Origin: a virus
Taxonomy: Duplodnaviria > Heunggongvirae > Uroviricota > Caudoviricetes
Length of the DNA stretch: 9,200 nucleotides
IMG/VR virus record: IMGVR_UViG_2850808358_000007
Span: 1 to 9,200 of that record
Strand: one strand, 5' to 3'
The notes beneath the pieces were generated by a model. It made no database searches and had not been told where the DNA came from. It saw only the letters and a program-made list of their open reading frames with translations. The position numbers and the translations under genes were made by a program. This document shows, piece after piece, positions 1 to 9,200 of this stretch. The stretch's first letter is position 1; the number at the start of each line of letters is the position of its first letter.

Positions 1-819
1 TTAAGCAGCCATCTGATGATATTTTTCCCTGAAGGCTGCCGGGGAGATATTCCCCAGACGAGAGTGACGACGCTGACGATTGTAGAAAATCTCAATGTAT
101 TCCCGTATTACTGAGATGGCTTCATCCCGGTTATTAAAACGATAGTGGCTCAGGCTCTCATTTTTCAGCGTTCCCCAGAAGCTTTCCATCGGAGCGTTGT
201 CGTAACAGTTACCTTTACGCGACATTGATGTTTTCAGACCAAACTGCTCCTGTATGACCCGGTAATCGTATGCGCAGTACTGTGAACCTCGATCAGAGTG
301 GTGGATTAGCCCGGCAGGTGGGCGCTGGCTCCTGAGCGCCATAAACAGGGCTTTACCTGTCAGCTCTTTTGTCATGCGCTCTCCCATGGCGTAGCCGACA
401 ATTTCGCACGTATAAACATCTTTGATGCCAGCGAGGTACAACCATCCCTCCTGTGTGGCAACATACGTCAGGTCCGCCACCCAGACCTGATTTGGTGCTG
501 TAGGAGCGAACGTCTGGTTCAGCAGATTTGGCGCAACTGGCAGATTGTGGTTCGGGTTCGTAGTCGCTCTGAACTTGCGTTTCTGCTTACAGCGTAGCCT
601 TAGCTCCTTACGAAGACGTGCCAGTCGGTCACGACCAACGATGATGCCATTCTCTGCCAGCTCCGTCTGGAGCCGCCGGGTTCCATATGTTTCGCGAGTG
701 CGGATATGTGCCACCTTAATCTCCAGTTTTAGCCGCTCATCACTTTGTTTTCTGTCTGAGGGTTCATGCTGTACCCGGTTGTAATAACCGCTCCTGGATA
801 CACCAAATACCTGACACAT
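1..819 (-). CDS. IS3-family transposase OrfB (DDE catalytic domain)
   Basis: 272-aa ORF with integrase-like DDE-region motifs (HSDRGSQY, CYDNAPMESFWGTLK). It is in the -1 frame relative to orfA, and that frame is open with no stop from the slippery site (~906) down to the ATG at 819. Confidence 0.85.
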   Translation of the reverse strand: MCQVFGVSRSGYYNRVQHEPSDRKQSDERLKLEIKVAHIRTRETYGTRRLQTELAENGIIVGRDRLARLRKELRLRCKQKRKFRATTNPNHNLPVAPNLLNQTFAPTAPNQVWVADLTYVATQEGWLYLAGIKDVYTCEIVGYAMGERMTKELTGKALFMALRSQRPPAGLIHHSDRGSQYCAYDYRVIQEQFGLKTSMSRKGNCYDNAPMESFWGTLKNESLSHYRFNNRDEAISVIREYIEIFYNRQRRHSRLGNISPAAFREKYHQMAA

Positions 820-1157
820 CGCTTCAATGGGAAATTGTTGTCGCCATTGTTCGATTAACGCGTATTTTTCAGCGACTCCTGTGCAAAATACGCTGTTGCT
901 TTTTTTAATATATCTCGCTCAAGGCGAGCTTCATTTAACGCCTTACGCAGTTGCAGAATTTCAGATTCCAGTTCAGCCACCGTGCGGGAACCAGGAGTAC
1001 CGAGCCCTTTTCTGGCGGCGGTAACCCATTGTCCTAAAGTGCCTTCAGGAAGGGATAATCGGGAAGCGCCTTCACTGATCGAAAGTTGATTTTCAAGAAC
1101 CGTTCTGACAGCTTCGGCTTTGAACTCTTTAGAGTAACGTTGGGTTTTTCTGCTCAT
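1..1157 (-). CDS. OrfAB transframe transposase (predicted -1 programmed frameshift product)
   Basis: Slippery heptamer A_AAA_AAA (minus strand, 906..900) sits in the orfA zero frame at codons Leu-Lys-Lys. After a -1 slip the frame reads ...KKSNSVFCTGVAEKYALIEQWRQQFPIEAMCQVFG... without a stop into orfB (translated by hand from the sequence). Confidence 0.65.
855..1157 (-). CDS. IS3-family transposase OrfA (DNA-binding N-terminal part)
   Basis: 100-aa ORF beginning MSRKTQRYSKEFKAEAV, with a C-terminal leucine-heptad region (LESEILQLRKALNEARLERDILKKATAYFA) typical of IS3-family OrfA. A GGAG Shine-Dalgarno lies about 8 nt upstream on the minus strand (reverse complement of 1162-1175). Confidence 0.85.
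   Translation of the reverse strand: MSRKTQRYSKEFKAEAVRTVLENQLSISEGASRLSLPEGTLGQWVTAARKGLGTPGSRTVAELESEILQLRKALNEARLERDILKKATAYFAQESLKNTR
900..906 (-). other. -1 programmed ribosomal frameshift slippery site (A AAA AAA G) of the IS transposase
   Basis: A run of 7 T on the plus strand at 900-906, i.e. 7 A on the minus strand, positioned in the orfA frame as X_XXY_YYZ. Confidence 0.6.
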
Positions 1158-1221
1158 TATTAGCTCCTTCTGATGCCATTCTATTTCAGGAAGGAGTGTC
1201 CGTTAAACTCAGGCTACCTCA

Positions 1222-2175
1222 GTCGGCATGGTCTGCACGGCCAGCGATGCGGATGCGGAAACCTTTCCCCTCAATAAACCTGTGCTGATTACCAATGTGC
1301 AGAGCGCAATTGCAAAGGCCGGTAAAAAAGGCACGCTGGCGGCGTCGCTGCAGGCCATCGCCGACCAGTCAAAACCGGTCACCGTTGTTGTGCGCGTGGA
1401 AGACGGCACCGGCGACGACGAGGAAACGAAACTTGCGCAGACCGTTTCCAATATCATCGGCACCACCGACGAAAACGGTCAGTACACCGGACTGAAAGCC
1501 CTGCTGGCGGCGGAGTCAGTAACCGGTGTTAAACCGCGTATTCTCGGCGTGCCGGGACTGGACACCAAAGAGGTGGCTGTTGCACTGGCATCAGTCTGTC
1601 AGAAGCTGCGCGCTTTCGGGTATATCAGCGCATGGGGCTGTAAGACCATTTCCGAGGTGAAAGCCTACCGCCAGAATTTCAGCCAGCGTGAGCTGATGGT
1701 CATCTGGCCGGATTTCCTCGCATGGGATACGGTCACCAGTACCACCGCCACCGCGTATGCCACCGCCCGTGCGCTGGGTCTGCGTGCTAAAATCGACCAG
1801 GAGCAGGGCTGGCATAAAACGTTGTCCAACGTCGGGGTAAATGGTGTTACCGGCATCAGCGCATCTGTATTCTGGGATTTGCAGGAGTCCGGTACCGATG
1901 CTGACCTGCTTAACGAGTCAGGCGTCACTACGCTGATTCGCGACATCGTTGACGGCATCAATGCCAAATTTCGTGAGCTGAAAACAAACGGCTATATCGT
2001 GGATGCGACCTGCTGGTTCAGCGAAGAATCCAACGATGCGGAAACTCTTAAGGCCGGAAAACTGTATATCGACTACGACTATACCCCGGTTCCTCCTCTT
2101 GAAAACCTGACCCTGCGCCAGCGTATTACCGATAAATACCTGGCAAATCTGGTCACCTCGGTTAACAGCAATTAA
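1222..2175 (+). pseudogene. FI: P2-like tail sheath protein FI, 5'-truncated by the IS insertion (first in-frame ATG at 1228)
   Basis: The reading frame is open from the IS junction, and the protein ([27 protein letters not shown]...[12 protein letters not shown]) matches my recollection of P2 gpFI. About 317 codons remain versus the ~396 aa I recall for P2 FI. There is no native N-terminus or ribosome-binding site, and the gene sits immediately upstream of FII as in P2. Confidence 0.8.
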
Positions 2176-2187
2176 GGAGCCTGACCG

Positions 2188-2706
2188 ATGGCAATGCCGC
2201 GCAAACTCAAGTTAATGAACGTCTTTCTGAACGGCTACAGCTATCAGGGCGTTGCAAAGTCCGTCACGCTGCCAAAACTGACCCGTAAACTCGAAAACTA
2301 TCGCGGTGCGGGGATGAACGGAAGCGCACCGGTAGACCTCGGCCTTGATGACGATGCGCTGTCAATGGAGTGGTCGCTCGGGGGCTTCCCGGATTCGGTT
2401 ATCTGGGAGCTTTACGCCGCAACCGGTGTGGATGCCGTGCCGATTCGTTTTGCTGGCTCTTACCAGCGTGACGATACCGGCGAAACGGTGGCCGTAGAGG
2501 TGGTCATGCGTGGCCGTCAGAAAGAAATCGACACCGGCGAGGGTAAACAGGGAGAAGACACCGAGTCGAAAATCTCCGTGGTCTGCACCTATTTCCGGCT
2601 GACGATGGACGGTAAGGAGCTGGTCGAAATCGACACCATCAACATGATTGAGAAGGTGAACGGCGTCGACCGGCTGGAGCAACACCGCCGCAATATCGGC
2701 CTGTAA
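2188..2706 (+). CDS. FII: P2-like tail tube protein FII
   Basis: 172-aa ORF, the length I recall for P2 gpFII. AGGAG lies 8 nt upstream of the ATG. Position between FI and E is syntenic with P2. Confidence 0.88.
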   Translation: MAMPRKLKLMNVFLNGYSYQGVAKSVTLPKLTRKLENYRGAGMNGSAPVDLGLDDDALSMEWSLGGFPDSVIWELYAATGVDAVPIRFAGSYQRDDTGETVAVEVVMRGRQKEIDTGEGKQGEDTESKISVVCTYFRLTMDGKELVEIDTINMIEKVNGVDRLEQHRRNIGL

Positions 2707-2762
2707 TTTTCATCCGGTCAGCCTGCCTGACCGGTTAACACCGATTCAGAAGTGAGAAAACC

Positions 2763-3038
2763 ATGAACAAAGAAAATGTGATTACCCTGGACAATCCGGT
2801 CAAGCGTGGTGAGCAGGTTATCGAACAGGTCACGCTGATGAAACCCAGTGCGGGGACGCTGCGCGGTGTCAGTCTGGCTGCGGTCGCAAACTCAGAAGTC
2901 GATGCACTGATTAAGGTGCTGCCGCGCATGACGGCACCGATGCTGACCGAGCAGGAAGTCGCCGCGCTGGAACTGCCTGACCTTGTGGCGCTGGCTGGTA
3001 AGGTGGTCGGTTTTTTGTCGCCGAACTCGGTGCAGTAA
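2763..3038 (+). CDS. E: P2-like tail assembly chaperone gpE
   Basis: 91-aa ORF, the length I recall for P2 gpE, with the slippery heptamer T_TTT_TTG near its 3' end. Confidence 0.85.
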   Translation: MNKENVITLDNPVKRGEQVIEQVTLMKPSAGTLRGVSLAAVANSEVDALIKVLPRMTAPMLTEQEVAALELPDLVALAGKVVGFLSPNSVQ

Positions 3039-3190
3039 CGTTCCCGAAAAATCTGTCGGTCGATGACCTGATGGCGGATGTGGCAGTGATATTTCACTGG
3101 CCGCCATCAGAACTGTATCCCATGAGCCTGACCGAACTCATCACATGGCGCGAAAAGGCGCTCCGGCGAAGCGGAAACACAAATGAGTAA
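2763..3190 (+). CDS. E': gpE+E' transframe tail chaperone (predicted -1 frameshift at 3011-3017)
   Basis: T_TTT_TTG at 3011-3017 is in the E zero frame (codons Gly-Phe-Leu). By hand translation the -1 frame is then open to a TAA at 3188-3190, giving ~142 aa, the length I recall for P2 E+E'. Confidence 0.65.
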
Positions 3191-5609
3191 CAATGTAAAA
3201 TTACAGGTATTGCTCAGGGCTGTTGACCAGGCATCCCGCCCGTTTAAATCCATCCGCACAGCGAGTAAGTCGCTGTCGGGGATATCCGGGAAACACAAAA
3301 ATCACTGCGCGAGCTGAACGGTCACGCATCCCGTATTGAGGGATTCCGCAAGACCAGTGCACAGCTCGCCGTGACTGGTCATGCACTTGAAAAGGCACGG
3401 CAGGAGGCCGAAGCCCTTGCCACACAGTTTAAAAACACCGAACGTCCGACCCGTGCTCAGGCGAAAGTGCTGGAATCAGCAAAGCGAGCGGCGGAGGACT
3501 TACAGGCGAAATATAACCGCCTGACGGATTCCGTTAAACGCCAGCAGCGGGAACTGGCCGCTGTGGGAATTAATACCCGCAATCTTGCACATGATGAGCA
3601 GGGACTGAAAAACCGTATCAGTGAAACCACCGCACAGCTTAACCGACAACGTGACGCGCTGGCGCGTGTCAGTGCGCAACAGGCAAAACTTAACGCAGTA
3701 AAACAGCGTTATCAGGCAGGCAAGGAACTGGCCGGAAATATGGCCTCAGTGGGCGCTGCCGGTGTGGGGATTGCTGCTGCGGGAACAATGGCCGGAGTTA
3801 AGCTACTGATGCCCGGTTATGAGTTTGCGCAGAAAAACTCAGAATTGCAGGCCGTGCTCGGAGTGGCAAAAGACTCTGCCGAAATGGCTGCACTACGCAA
3901 GCAGGCGCGCCAGCTCGGCGGACGATGCAGCCGGTGCGCAGATTATCATTGCGAAAGCGGGTGGAGATGCTGCGGCTATTCAGGCGGCAACGCCGGTCAC
4001 GCTGAATATGGCACTGGCGAATCAGCGGACGATGGAAGAAAACGCGCAACTGTTGCTGGGGACTAAGGCATCCTTTCAACTGTCAAATGATGATGTCAGC
4101 CATGTGGGCGACGTGTTGTCAGCAACGATGAATAAGTCGGCGGCTGATTTTCAGGGACTCAGTGATGCACTGACTTACCTCGGTCCGGTTGCGAGGACGG
4201 CAGGTGTAAGTCTTGAGCAGGCAGCGGCCATGACAGGTGTGCTGCATGACAATAACATCAGGGGGTCAATGGCGGGTACGGGTAGTAGTGCCGTTGTCAC
4301 CCGATTACAGGCTCCGACAGGGAAAGCATGGGAAGCACTAAAAGAGCTTGGCGTTAAAACCTCGGACAAAAAGGGAAATATGCGTCCGTTGTTCACCATT
4401 CTGAAAGAGATTCAGGTCAGCTTTGATAAACACAAGCTGGGAACGTCTCAGAAGGGGGAATACCTTAAAACCATTTTTGGTGAGGAAGCCCTGAAATCAG
4501 CGAACGTTTTACTGGCAGCGGCTGCAAGCGGAAAACTGGATAAGCTGACCGCCACGCTGAAAGCCTCGGACGGTAAAACGGAAGAGCTGGTTAAAATCAT
4601 GCAGGACAACCTCGGCGGTGACTTTAAGGAGTTTCAGTCCGCTTATGAGGCGGTGGGGACTGACCTGTTTGACCAGCAGGAAGGCGCACTGCGTAATCTC
4701 ACGCAGACGGCCACAAAGTATGTGTTAAAACTCGACGGCTGGATCCAGAAAAACAAATCACTGGCGTCAACCATCGGCATCATTGTCGGTGGTGCACTGG
4801 CGCTGACTGGTGTCATCGGTGCCATTGGCCTCGTAGCCTGGCCGGTTATCACCGGCATCAATGCCATTATCGCGGCAGCAGGCGCAATGGGGGCAATCTT
4901 CACGACGGTTGGCAGTGCTGTTATGACGGCCATCGGGGCGATTAGCTGGCCGGTTGTGGCCGTGGTGGCTGCAATTGTCGCCGGGGCGTTGCTTATCCGT
5001 AAATACTGGGAGCCTGTCAGCGCATTCTTTGGCGGTGTGGTGGAAGGGCTGAAAGCGGCATTTGCGCCGGTGGGGGAACTGTTCGCGCCACTTAAGCCGG
5101 TGTTTGACTGGCTGGGTGAAAAGTTACAGGCCGCGTGGCAGTGGTTTAAAAACCTGATTGCCCCCGTCAAAGCCACCCAGGACACCCTGAACCGTTGCCG
5201 TGATACGGGCGTCATGTTCGGGCAGGCACTGGCTGACGCGCTGATGCTGCCGCTTAATGCGTTCAACAAACTGCGCAGCGGCATTGACTGGGTACTGGAA
5301 AAACTCGGTGTTATCAACAAAGAGTCAGACACACTTGACCAGACCGCCGCCAGAACTCATGCCGCCACGTATGGCAACGGTGGTTATATTCCGGCGACCA
5401 GCTCTTATGCAGGCTATCAGGCTTATCAGCCGGTCACGGTACCGGCTGGTCGCTCTTATGTGGACCAGAGTAAAAACGAATATCACATCAGCCTGACGGG
5501 TGGTACTGCGCCGGGGACACAGCTTGACCGCCAGTTACAGGATGCGCTCGAAAAATACGAGCGGGATAAACGTGCGCGCGCCCGTGCCAGCATGATGCAT
5601 GACGGTTAA
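3183..5609 (+). pseudogene. T: P2-like tail tape measure protein gpT, disrupted by two reading-frame changes
   Basis: Three colinear frame segments: ATG at 3183 (MSNNVKLQVLLRAVDQ...) stops at 3315-3317; a second frame is open from 3269 to 4066; a third runs 3819-5609. All read as continuous tape-measure-like sequence (coiled-coil N-terminus, Gly/Ala/Ile-rich hydrophobic segment, C-terminus ...YERDKRARARASMMHDG). The 2427-nt span is close to the 815 codons I recall for P2 gpT. Confidence 0.7.
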
Positions 5610-5623
5610 GGAGGTGACGAAAA

Positions 5624-6103
5624 GTGATGCTCGCGTTAGGTATGTTTGTTTTTATGCGCCAGACGCTGCCACACCAGACCATGCAGCGTGAATCAGATTA
5701 TCGCTGGCCGTCAAATTCCCGTATCGGTAAACGGGATGCCTACCAGTTTCTCGGTGTGGGTGAGGAAAACATGACGCTTGCCGGCGTGCTTTATCCCGAA
5801 CTGACCGGCGGGAAGCTGACGATGACCACGCTCAGGCTGATGGCAGAGGAAGGCCGGGCGTGGCCGTTGCTGGATGGCACTGGCATGATTTACGGCATGT
5901 ATATCGTCAGCAAGGTGAGTGAAACAGGGAGTATTTTCTTTGCAGACGGCACACCCCGGAAAATTGATTTTACGCTGTCACTCACCCGCGTTGATGAATC
6001 ACTGGCCGCGCTTTATGGCGATATCGGTAAACAGGCGGAATCGCTCATCGGTAAGGCTGGCAGTATGGCGACCAGATTCACGGGTATGACGGGGGCGGGA
6101 TAA
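5624..6103 (+). CDS. U: P2-like tail protein gpU
   Basis: 159-aa ORF, the length I recall for P2 gpU, starting at GTG 5624 followed by ATG 5627. GGAGGT at 5610-5615 is 8 nt upstream. Its stop overlaps the D start (TAATG). Confidence 0.85.
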   Translation: MMLALGMFVFMRQTLPHQTMQRESDYRWPSNSRIGKRDAYQFLGVGEENMTLAGVLYPELTGGKLTMTTLRLMAEEGRAWPLLDGTGMIYGMYIVSKVSETGSIFFADGTPRKIDFTLSLTRVDESLAALYGDIGKQAESLIGKAGSMATRFTGMTGAG

Positions 6104-7266
6104 TGCTGGATGCGCTGACATTTGATGCAGGCAGTACGCTGACGCCGGATTACATGCTGATGCTCGACAGCAGGGATATTACCGGCAATATCAGCGACCG
6201 TCTGATGAGCATGACCCTGACGGATAACCGGGGCTTTGAGGCTGACCAGCTTGATATTGAACTGAACGACGCCGACGGGCAGGTAGGGCTACCGGTTCGT
6301 GGCGCTGTCCTGACGGTGTATATCGGCTGGAAAGGTTTTGCCCTGGTATGCAAAGGGAAATTTACCGTTGATGAGGTTGAACACCGGGGCGCACCGGATG
6401 TGGTCACCATCCGCGCCCGGAGTGCAGATTTTCGCGGGACGCTCAATTCCCGCCGTGAAGGCTCCTGGCATGACACCACGCTCGGTGCGATTGTTGAGGC
6501 GATAGCCTCCCGTAACAGGCTGGAAGCCAGTGTCGCGCCGTCACTGGCAGGAATTAAAATCCCGCACATCGACCAGTCGCAGGAGTCTGATGCGAAATTC
6601 CTGACCCGCCTTGCTGAACGCAACGGCGGTGAGGTGTCGGTAAAAATGGGAAAACTGTTGTTTCTCAAAGCGGGGCAGGGGGTGACGGCCAGCGGTAAAA
6701 AAATCCCGCAGATTACCATCACCCGCAGCGACGGCGACCGTCATCATTTTGCGATTGCTGACCGTGGAGCTTACACCGGCGTAACGGCAAAGTGGTTACA
6801 CACCAAAGACCCGAAGCCGCAAAAGCAGAAGGTAAAACTGAAACGCAAAAAGAAAGAAAAACACCTGCGCGCACTGGAGCACCCGAAAGCGAAACCGGTC
6901 ACGCAGAAGAAAGCGCCAAAAGTACCGGAAGCGCGCGAAGGTGAATACATGGCCGGTGAAGCTGACAACGTTTTTGCCCTGACTACGGTATATGCCACGA
7001 AAGCACAGGCCATGCGCGCCGCTCAGGCGAAGTGGGATAAACTGCAACGGGGCGTTGCGGAGTTCTCCATCAGCCTTGCCACTGGTCGTGCTGATATTTA
7101 CACGGAAACACCGGTCAGAGTGTCAGGCTTTAAGCGCGTCATAGACGAGCAGGACTGGACAATCACTAAGGTGACACATTTTCTGAATAATAGCGGCTTC
7201 ACGACGTCCTTGGAGCTTGAGGTCAGGCTTTCTGATGTGGAGTACGAAACAGAAGATGATGAGTAA
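6103..7266 (+). CDS. D: P2-like tail protein gpD
   Basis: 387-aa ORF, the length I recall for P2 gpD. Start is translationally coupled to the U stop, and position is syntenic with P2. It contains an internal Lys-rich linker. Confidence 0.88.
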   Translation: MLDALTFDAGSTLTPDYMLMLDSRDITGNISDRLMSMTLTDNRGFEADQLDIELNDADGQVGLPVRGAVLTVYIGWKGFALVCKGKFTVDEVEHRGAPDVVTIRARSADFRGTLNSRREGSWHDTTLGAIVEAIASRNRLEASVAPSLAGIKIPHIDQSQESDAKFLTRLAERNGGEVSVKMGKLLFLKAGQGVTASGKKIPQITITRSDGDRHHFAIADRGAYTGVTAKWLHTKDPKPQKQKVKLKRKKKEKHLRALEHPKAKPVTQKKAPKVPEAREGEYMAGEADNVFALTTVYATKAQAMRAAQAKWDKLQRGVAEFSISLATGRADIYTETPVRVSGFKRVIDEQDWTITKVTHFLNNSGFTTSLELEVRLSDVEYETEDDE

Positions 7267-7347
7267 TGTTTTTATTTTATCTGTTTGTTTTATAAGGATA
7301 AATTAACTAAAATGGCACCGTCAACAAAACCGGAAGAGGTGCTCGCG

Positions 7348-7566
7348 ATGTTTCATTGTCCTTTATGCCAGCATGCCGCACATGCGCGTACAAGCCGCTA
7401 TATCACTGACACGACAAAAGAGCGTTATCACCAGTGTCAGAACGTGAATTGCAGCGCCACGTTCATCACTTATGAGTCGGTACAGCGATACATCGTGAAG
7501 CCGGGAGAAGTCCACGCCGTAAGACCGCACCCGTTGCCGTCAGGGCAGCAAATTATGTGGATGTAA
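7348..7566 (+). CDS. ogr: Ogr, zinc-finger late gene transcription activator
   Basis: 72-aa product MFHCPLCQHAAHARTSRYITDTTKERYHQCQNVNCSATF... with Cys at 4, 7, 30 and 35 (a Cys4 zinc finger), matching my recollection of P2 Ogr and E. coli K-12 OgrK. GAGG lies ~8 nt upstream of this ATG. The tracked ORF starts further upstream at 7285, but that extension has no ribosome-binding site support. Confidence 0.9.
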   Translation: MFHCPLCQHAAHARTSRYITDTTKERYHQCQNVNCSATFITYESVQRYIVKPGEVHAVRPHPLPSGQQIMWM

Positions 7567-7578
7567 TTACAAACAGGA

Positions 7579-7603
7579 AGCCCCTCAGTCGAGGGGCTTT
7601 TTT
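7579..7603 (+). terminator. Rho-independent terminator downstream of ogr
   Basis: GC-rich perfect inverted repeat GCCCCTC (7580-7586) / GAGGGGC (7591-7597) with a 4-nt loop, followed by a run of 6 T (7598-7603), 13 nt after the ogr stop. Confidence 0.75.
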
Positions 7604-7667
7604 GTCGATGTGGTCAATGTGTGGACGTGACCAGAAATAAATCCTTTTATTTCATTGTATTACGCGT

Positions 7668-7694
7668 AAAAAATAAGCCCGTGTAAGGGAGATT
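7668..7694 (+). other. Putative P2 attachment-site core (attR) marking the prophage/host boundary
   Basis: AAAAAATAAGCCCGTGTAAGGGAGATT matches my recollection of the 27-bp P2 att core. It lies immediately after ogr and its terminator, where attP sits in the P2 genome, and before host yegQ. Recollection only, unverified. Confidence 0.55.
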
Positions 7695-7838
7695 ACACAG
7701 GCTAAGGAGGTGGTTCCTGGTACAGCTAGCATTTTATGGGTTATGTTTTTCAGCGAAACGGATGATAACCTTAATAAATGCAGCTGTATGTGATCGGTTT
7801 CTAAGAATTTTCCATCCGGGAAAAATAATCGAAATTAA

Positions 7839-9200
7839 TCACTTACCGTGGGGGTTACGCGTGGTTTCCCCGGAGAAATTACGCATTAGCAGCGCGTAAT
7901 TTAGCTCAAGATCCTGCGGGACCGGGAGCCACACAGTATAACCATCGCCTGGTGCGACCGGCATAGCTTCGCCTTTGGCGTTTTCCATGTGCTCAAGGGT
8001 AAAGTTAATGTTGCCTTGCGGCGTCATCAGCTCAAGACTGTCGCCAACGGAGAATTTATTTTTCACCGCTACCGCTGCGAGGTCCCCCTTGCGCTCACCG
8101 GTAAACTCACCAACAAACTGCTGGCGGTCAGAAACTGAATAACCGTATTCGTAGTTCTGATAATCGTCGTGAGTATGACGACGCAGGAAACCTTCGGTAT
8201 AGCCACGATGCGCCAGACCTTCCAGAGTTTCCAGCAGGCTGGTATCGAACGGTTTTCCCGCAGCGGCGTCATCGATAGCTTTGCGGTAAACCTGTGCGGT
8301 GCGTGCGCAATAGTAGAAAGATTTGGTACGACCTTCGATTTTCAGCGAATGCACGCCCATTTTGGTCAGGCGTTCTACATGGGCGATGGCGCGCAGATCT
8401 TTCGAGTTCATGATGTAAGTGCCGTGCTCATCTTCAAACGCGGTCATATACTCGCCAGGACGCTGGGCCTCTTCGATCATAAACACTTTGTCGGTTGGCG
8501 CGCCGATACCCAGCGTCGGCTCAACATTTTGCACCGGAATCGGCTCGTACTTGTGTACGATGTTGCCAACGTCATCTTCTTTCCCTTCCTGGACGTTGTA
8601 CTCCCAGCGGCAGGCGTTGGTGCAGGTACCCTGGTTCGGATCGCGCTTGTTGATATAGCCAGAGAGCAGGCAGCGACCGGAGTAGGCCATGCACAGTGCG
8701 CCGTGAACGAAGATCTCGATCTCCATATCCGGCACCTGATTGCGGATCTCTTCAATCTCTTCAAGCGACAGCTCGCGAGAGAGGATCACGCGGGTCAGGC
8801 CCATTTGCTGCCAGAATTTCACCGTCGCCCAGTTTACGGCGTTAGCCTGCACCGAGAGGTGGATCGGCATTTCAGGGAAGTGCTCACGCACCAGCATAAT
8901 CAGCCCTGGATCGGACATAATCAGCGCATCCGGCCCCATTTCCACCACCGGTTTCAGGTCACAGATAAAGGTTTTCAGCTTGGCGTTGTGCGGTGCAATG
9001 TTGACCACGACATAAAACTTTTTCCCCAGCGCGTGGGCTTCATTGATGCCGAGCTGAAGATTTTCGTGGTTGAATTCGTTGTTGCGCACACGTAGGGAGT
9101 AACGCGGCTGGCCCGCATAAACAGCATCTGCGCCATAAGCGAAAGCGTAACGCATATTTTTCAGCGTTCCCGCCGGGGAAAGGAGTTCCGGTTTAAACAT
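7839..9200 (-). CDS. yegQ: Peptidase U32 family protein YegQ (TrhP, linked to tRNA U34 hydroxylation)
   Basis: 453-aa ORF, MFKPELLSPAGTLKNMRYAFAYGADAVYAGQPRYSLRVRNNEFNHENL..., matching the length and sequence I recall for E. coli YegQ. The start codon is at the last base of the window. A convergent ogrK lies next to yegQ in E. coli K-12. Confidence 0.9.
   Translation of the reverse strand: MFKPELLSPAGTLKNMRYAFAYGADAVYAGQPRYSLRVRNNEFNHENLQLGINEAHALGKKFYVVVNIAPHNAKLKTFICDLKPVVEMGPDALIMSDPGLIMLVREHFPEMPIHLSVQANAVNWATVKFWQQMGLTRVILSRELSLEEIEEIRNQVPDMEIEIFVHGALCMAYSGRCLLSGYINKRDPNQGTCTNACRWEYNVQEGKEDDVGNIVHKYEPIPVQNVEPTLGIGAPTDKVFMIEEAQRPGEYMTAFEDEHGTYIMNSKDLRAIAHVERLTKMGVHSLKIEGRTKSFYYCARTAQVYRKAIDDAAAGKPFDTSLLETLEGLAHRGYTEGFLRRHTHDDYQNYEYGYSVSDRQQFVGEFTGERKGDLAAVAVKNKFSVGDSLELMTPQGNINFTLEHMENAKGEAMPVAPGDGYTVWLPVPQDLELNYALLMRNFSGETTRNPHGK

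Follow-up and report, generated by a model that had tools for sequence, protein, structure and literature searches.

The tail tape measure gene T of a P2-like (Peduovirus) prophage remnant has very probably been converted by a genuine 20-bp repeat-flanked deletion into a neutral, decaying pseudogene rather than a functional variant, in an element that was already non-viable. The gene lies in a 9,200-nt stretch of DNA (the window), which is an exact slice of the 5.13-Mb chromosome sequence NCBI CP026877.1. Shigella boydii ATCC 35964 is the most likely host, judging from the neighboring accession CP026876.1, which is a plasmid of that strain. The features of the window are as follows.

1..1221, minus strand: IS600 (IS3 family), with its start ~43 nt outside the window on the left; terminal inverted repeat up to 1221, abutting FI codon 28
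1222..2175, plus strand: FI (tail sheath), defective; the first 81 nt are gone at the IS600 junction (1221/1222), and homology starts at FI nucleotide 82
2188-2706, plus strand: FII (tail tube), intact
2763-3038, plus strand: E, intact
3017-3190, plus strand: E', open frame intact; conserved P2 programmed -1 slip at GGTTTTTTG (3010-3018); stop at 3188-3190, overlapping the start of T (3183)
3183..5609, plus strand: T (tail tape measure) pseudogene of a P2-like prophage, 2427 nt versus 2448 nt in intact relatives
3278..3281, plus strand: first frame break in T, at codon 32; GGGG versus GGGGG in intact relatives and in the ERR200316 assembly
3914..3920, plus strand: deletion junction, a single retained CTCGGCG (one copy of a 7-bp direct repeat), from alignment to intact T
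3921..4066, plus strand: out-of-frame read-through, 48 non-native residues (GRCSRC...VAGD), stop at 4064-4066
4008..5609, plus strand: C-terminal fragment of T starting at an internal ATG (533 aa), native T in the original frame, as called by gene finders in public assemblies
5624-6103, plus strand: U, intact
6103-7266, plus strand: D, intact
7348-7566, plus strand: ogr, intact; right end of the prophage
7671-7756, minus strand: CyaR/RyeE sRNA (Rfam RF00112, 100.7 bits)
7839-9200, minus strand: yegQ/trhP, host flank

The identity of the gene was examined by sequence, position, and reading frame. In BLAST searches, the T region was 96-98% identical to the closest phage T genes at 100% query coverage and 98.9% identical to T of the E. 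coli VG12A2 prophage. Each of the 73 phage matches covered 80% or more of the query, and the top matches listed, from phages and E. coli alike, spanned 2447-2449 nt; similarity to gpT ran along the full length of the gene. The position was also that of a P2-type T, with the E' end at 3190, the T start at 3183, and the U start at 5624, a layout shared by the loci of its relatives. P2 and other Peduovirus phages (P2_4C9, Wphi, and 10W/11W), together with P2-like prophages of E. coli, encode an 815-aa T, the tail length tape measure protein. The window gene resembles these in its nucleotide identity (96-99% over the whole gene), in the presence of the PhageMin_Tail domain (Pfam PF10145, found on the C-terminal T fragment), in its neighbors (FI-FII-E/E'-T-U-D-ogr), and in the overlap of the T start with the E' stop. 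It differs from them in having lost 20 nt (codons 245-251), which shifts the frame, and in this assembly 1 nt at codon 32 as well, and it is unable to encode the 815-aa protein. Because three frame segments with a stop at 4064-4066 take the place of one continuous frame of ~815 codons, the window T is a pseudogene of the P2-type T family and not a functional member.

The codon differences from intact genes were also counted. Compared with VG12A2, the window T carried one synonymous and four nonsynonymous differences, and compared with P2_4C9, 25 synonymous and three nonsynonymous, numbers too small to judge relaxed selection. Two substitutions, S290T and T739N, were found only in the window when compared with three intact T genes, and could have arisen before or after inactivation.

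Two overlapping open reading frames on the plus strand mark the break. The frame at 3371-4066 carried T residues ending in ...AEMAALRKQARQLG, followed by 48 non-T residues (GRCSRCADYHCESGWRCC...) up to the stop at 4066, while the frame at 3819-5609, in a different register, carried ...SADDAAGAQIIIAKAGGD... as far as the stop at 5609. This is the two-frame switch that an earlier note on this DNA had described. We then aligned the window (3183-5609) by MAFFT with three intact T genes, those of E. coli VG12A2, phage P2_4C9, and phage Wphi (each 2448 nt, 815 codons). The alignment contained exactly two gaps, one of 1 nt in the G run (3278-3281) and one of 20 nt after 3913. Since T with both gaps filled read as a single 815-codon frame with zero internal stops, the two-gap pattern is not due to chance. 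The earlier note had assumed an ancestor of 815 codons and estimated a net loss of ~21 nt, composed of 1 nt and a second, 3n+2 deletion of ~20 nt; the three intact genes and the two gaps agree with each of these figures. It had also proposed nucleotide alignment with intact P2-like T genes as the check on the second break, and this alignment sized the indel there at exactly 20 nt rather than returning an uninterrupted match.

The deletion left a simple scar. The intact gene reads CCAG-CTCGGCG-ACAACACCGCCGC-CTCGGCG-GACG, and the window reads CCAG-CTCGGCG-GACG; the sequence across the junction is CGCCAGCTCGGCGGACGATGC. Missing are one copy of CTCGGCG and the 13-nt spacer, which together correspond to codons 245-251 (LGDNTAA). 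Because one repeat copy was retained, the junction has no unique position and may lie anywhere between 3913/3914 and 3920/3921, an interval that includes the switch point near 3917-3921 given in the earlier note. In both VG12A2 and P2_4C9, the two closest intact relatives, two copies of CTCGGCG bracket the segment that is lost, and exactly one is left in the window. In these two genes, CTCGGCG is the only repeat of at least 6 bp at a lag of 20 nt, and the observed deletion is one of ~1,813 distinct 20-nt deletions that were possible; chance therefore does not account for its endpoints falling on the repeat.

This structure fits the classical scar of slipped-strand or microhomology-mediated deletion, as far as a mechanism can be read from the repeats. 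Short-range deletions between close direct repeats are classically ascribed to slippage. Starting from two CTCGGCG copies 20 bp apart in intact T, one copy and the 13-bp spacer would have been lost, most likely by slipped-strand mispairing during replication, a step suggested by the repeat structure. The same deletion, and the same pseudogene, could have arisen instead by microhomology-mediated repair of a double-strand break or by RecA-independent recombination, which we regard as possible but unlikely. A scar with one retained 7-bp copy is equally compatible with these routes, and the deletion in FI described below involves 12-bp repeats 156 nt apart, a distance open to several mechanisms. 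Against them stands the general attribution of close-repeat deletions to slippage; the sequence itself favors neither.

We next compared the window with independent sequencing data. The Logan short-read assembly of run ERR200316 contains an 8,558-nt contig that is present in four samples and for which a 533-aa C-terminal T product is on record. Over window positions 1195-9200 (8,006 nt), every base of this contig was identical except for the G run, which reads GGGGG, and the 20-nt junction was the same. The 20-nt deletion is therefore not an artefact of the assembly from which the window was taken. ERR200316 and the three other samples could represent the same strain or a close relative, and they constitute independent sequencing data rather than an independent lineage. 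The contig starts inside the IS600 end and stops within the ~70 nt between yegP and the IS4 gene.

It is accordingly very improbable that the real genome contains the 20 nt and that assembly or polishing dropped them. One observation leaves room for such errors in this gene, as the break at the G run (G4 versus G5) was absent from the independent assembly and could be a homopolymer error, which a strain-private slip would explain equally well. The 20-nt junction, by contrast, was identical in the ERR200316 contig, which otherwise matches throughout the shared 8,006 nt. A 7-bp repeat is far too short to cause assembly collapse, and to our knowledge deletions of 20 nt are not a typical error of any sequencing platform. 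The earlier note had called T a pseudogene unless both breaks were sequencing errors. Its main statement is borne out by the frameshift reproduced in ERR200316; the reservation falls away for the 20-nt break and still applies to the G run.

The G-run break is private to the CP026877.1 assembly, where it may reflect either a homopolymer error or a slip private to the strain. Because it was not reproduced in the independent assembly, the pseudogene status of T rests on the 20-nt deletion, which suffices for it. In the window's assembly, the G-run deletion ends translation still earlier, at 3315-3317. The two indels total 21 nt and restore the original frame for the third segment; the intervening 636 nt, however, are read in the wrong frame and include stops, so the first lesion is not rescued by the second.

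The distribution of the junction was then investigated. No match to the junction was found in 5,426 complete E. coli genomes or in 50,697 phage records, and in a search with a 100-nt junction query, every full-length match shown consisted of two pieces spanning 120 nt. Searches of GTDB species representatives with the junction 42-mer and a degenerate 24-mer gave no match; in that collection, Shigella is folded into a single E. coli representative, which makes this result uninformative. The degenerate 24-mer also gave no match in IMG/VR. Judging from the complete E. coli genomes and the phage records, the 20-nt deletion is a derived, lineage-private lesion. In JGI metagenomes the 24-mer gave one match, on contig Ga0185299_10032549 (3175-3198), which lies in an unrelated GC-rich gene without BLAST similarity to the window and was set aside as a chance match. 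The literature was also searched by accession and run number, and returned nothing.

Protein records were also searched. The T' product of ERR200316 is 294 aa long, with 246 native and 48 out-of-frame residues, and is on record on two contigs. Exact look-up of the 596-aa product of the frame at 3819-5609 and of the 44-aa first T fragment found neither on record. The 48-residue out-of-frame tail had no match among protein cluster representatives (90% identity), and its two known carriers sit in clusters whose representatives are normal T fragments. Records on 247 contigs, one of them a 5.2-Mb chromosome, list a different truncation of T (protein P0033, 336 aa, "TP901 family, core region," E. 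coli KTE6); the P2-like T may thus be broken or differently called in another widespread E. coli lineage.

With the 20-nt deletion alone, the predicted product comprises 246 native and 48 out-of-frame residues, 294 aa in place of 815. The loss of 3n+2 nt would put the ribosome out of frame after Gly246 and lead it to a stop 48 codons on. Translation from the T start would thus leave out the PhageMin_Tail core together with the entire C-terminal two thirds (564 residues) of the 815 aa. It is highly unlikely that programmed frameshifting joins the two frames or that each terminal fragment works as a protein of its own. Such an arrangement would have a precedent in the programmed -1 frameshift of the neighboring E/E' pair, and the C-terminal fragment does keep an intact PhageMin_Tail domain and an internal ATG. 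However, a continuous 815-codon frame crosses the break in all intact relatives examined, and the two-frame arrangement was found in none of the phage records or complete E. coli genomes searched. There is no slippery heptamer at CAG CTC GGC GGA CGA or elsewhere in 3905-3925, and the shift needed would be +1/-2; the window T thus has neither a conserved two-frame arrangement nor a slippery sequence at the switch. Moreover, with the sheath gene defective and all upstream of FI gone, a tape measure would have nothing to measure.

The element around T was examined as well. The IS600 in the window contains two reading frames on the minus strand, orfB (1-819) and orfA (855-1157), and is 100% identical to a copy on the plasmid of Shigella boydii ATCC 35964 (CP026876.1). 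The full copy is ~1264 bp long (locus L005 2588-3851), is bounded by the inverted repeats TGAGGTGTACTGGCAATAGCGGACACT and TGAGGTAGCCTGAGTTTAACGGACACT, and forms the left boundary of the remnant, where it adjoins yegR; the host genes yegR and yegS lie directly to its left. Nothing upstream of FI is left, the part that in P2-like prophages holds among others the integrase, head, baseplate, and fibre genes, and the element does not have the full set (integrase, regulatory, replication, head, lysis, baseplate, and fibre genes) of a complete or inducible P2-like prophage. The element is therefore a prophage remnant at the yegR/yegQ locus and not a prophage, and IS600 presumably mediated the loss of the rest. 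FI carries a second lesion: 156 nt have been lost, in frame, between two copies of a 12-bp direct repeat (ACGCTGATTCGC), one of which is kept at 1930-1941. The remnant thus contains a second repeat-mediated deletion. The lesion in T would thus have hit an element already made non-viable by the replacement of everything upstream of FI codon 28 with IS600 and bearing a second repeat-mediated deletion in FI. This context makes T a neutral, decaying pseudogene and not a functional variant. We consider it most doubtful that the T' N-terminal product or the 533-aa C-terminal fragment, expressed under Ogr control with FII, E/E', U, and D, is retained by the host as a dominant-negative decoy against tail assembly of superinfecting P2-like phages.

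On the right side of the remnant, CyaR sits between the prophage end (ogr terminator, ~7577-7605) and yegQ, which places the phage attachment site next to the sRNA gene. An IS4-family transposase gene lies just past yegP on this side (locus L005 12372-12696; locus L006 11735-13063), so that the region is bracketed by IS600 and IS4. In approximately 690 complete E. coli genomes, 80% or more of the window is covered at one place, and the top matches show an uninterrupted tail-gene cluster ending beside yegQ; the yegQ site looks like one commonly occupied by P2-like prophages.

Finally, the remnant was compared with known decaying elements. E. coli K-12 reportedly carries a cryptic P2-like remnant next to yegQ/cyaR, of which only ogrK and the D fragment yegZ are left. 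The element in the window resembles it in lying at the same site, between yegR and cyaR/yegQ, and in having kept the right end with ogr and lost the left part. It differs in its larger size (FI' to ogr, ~6.3 kb), in having IS600 as the left boundary, and in its additional small repeat-mediated deletions. In Shigella genomes, IS600 has expanded and pseudogenes, typically including many frameshifted ones, number in the hundreds (Hawkey et al. 2020, PMC7373316). The window shares with this genome degradation the flanking of the locus by IS600 and IS4 and inactivation by IS-associated truncation together with frameshifting indels, whereas here a prophage gene is hit and not a host metabolic gene, and no selective benefit is implied.

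These results indicate that the frameshift in T is ordinary prophage decay and nothing new in kind. T at the yegR/yegQ locus should be annotated as a frameshifted pseudogene in a defective P2-like remnant, and the public 231-aa, 294-aa, and 533-aa "proteins" as fragments of T, two of which bear the 48-residue nonsense tail. As a practical lesson, only the 20-nt break was reproduced independently, so the G-run break is best treated as a possible homopolymer error. Beyond correct annotation the significance is slight, and the junction sequence, being private, could be used to trace the lineage of the Shigella clone.
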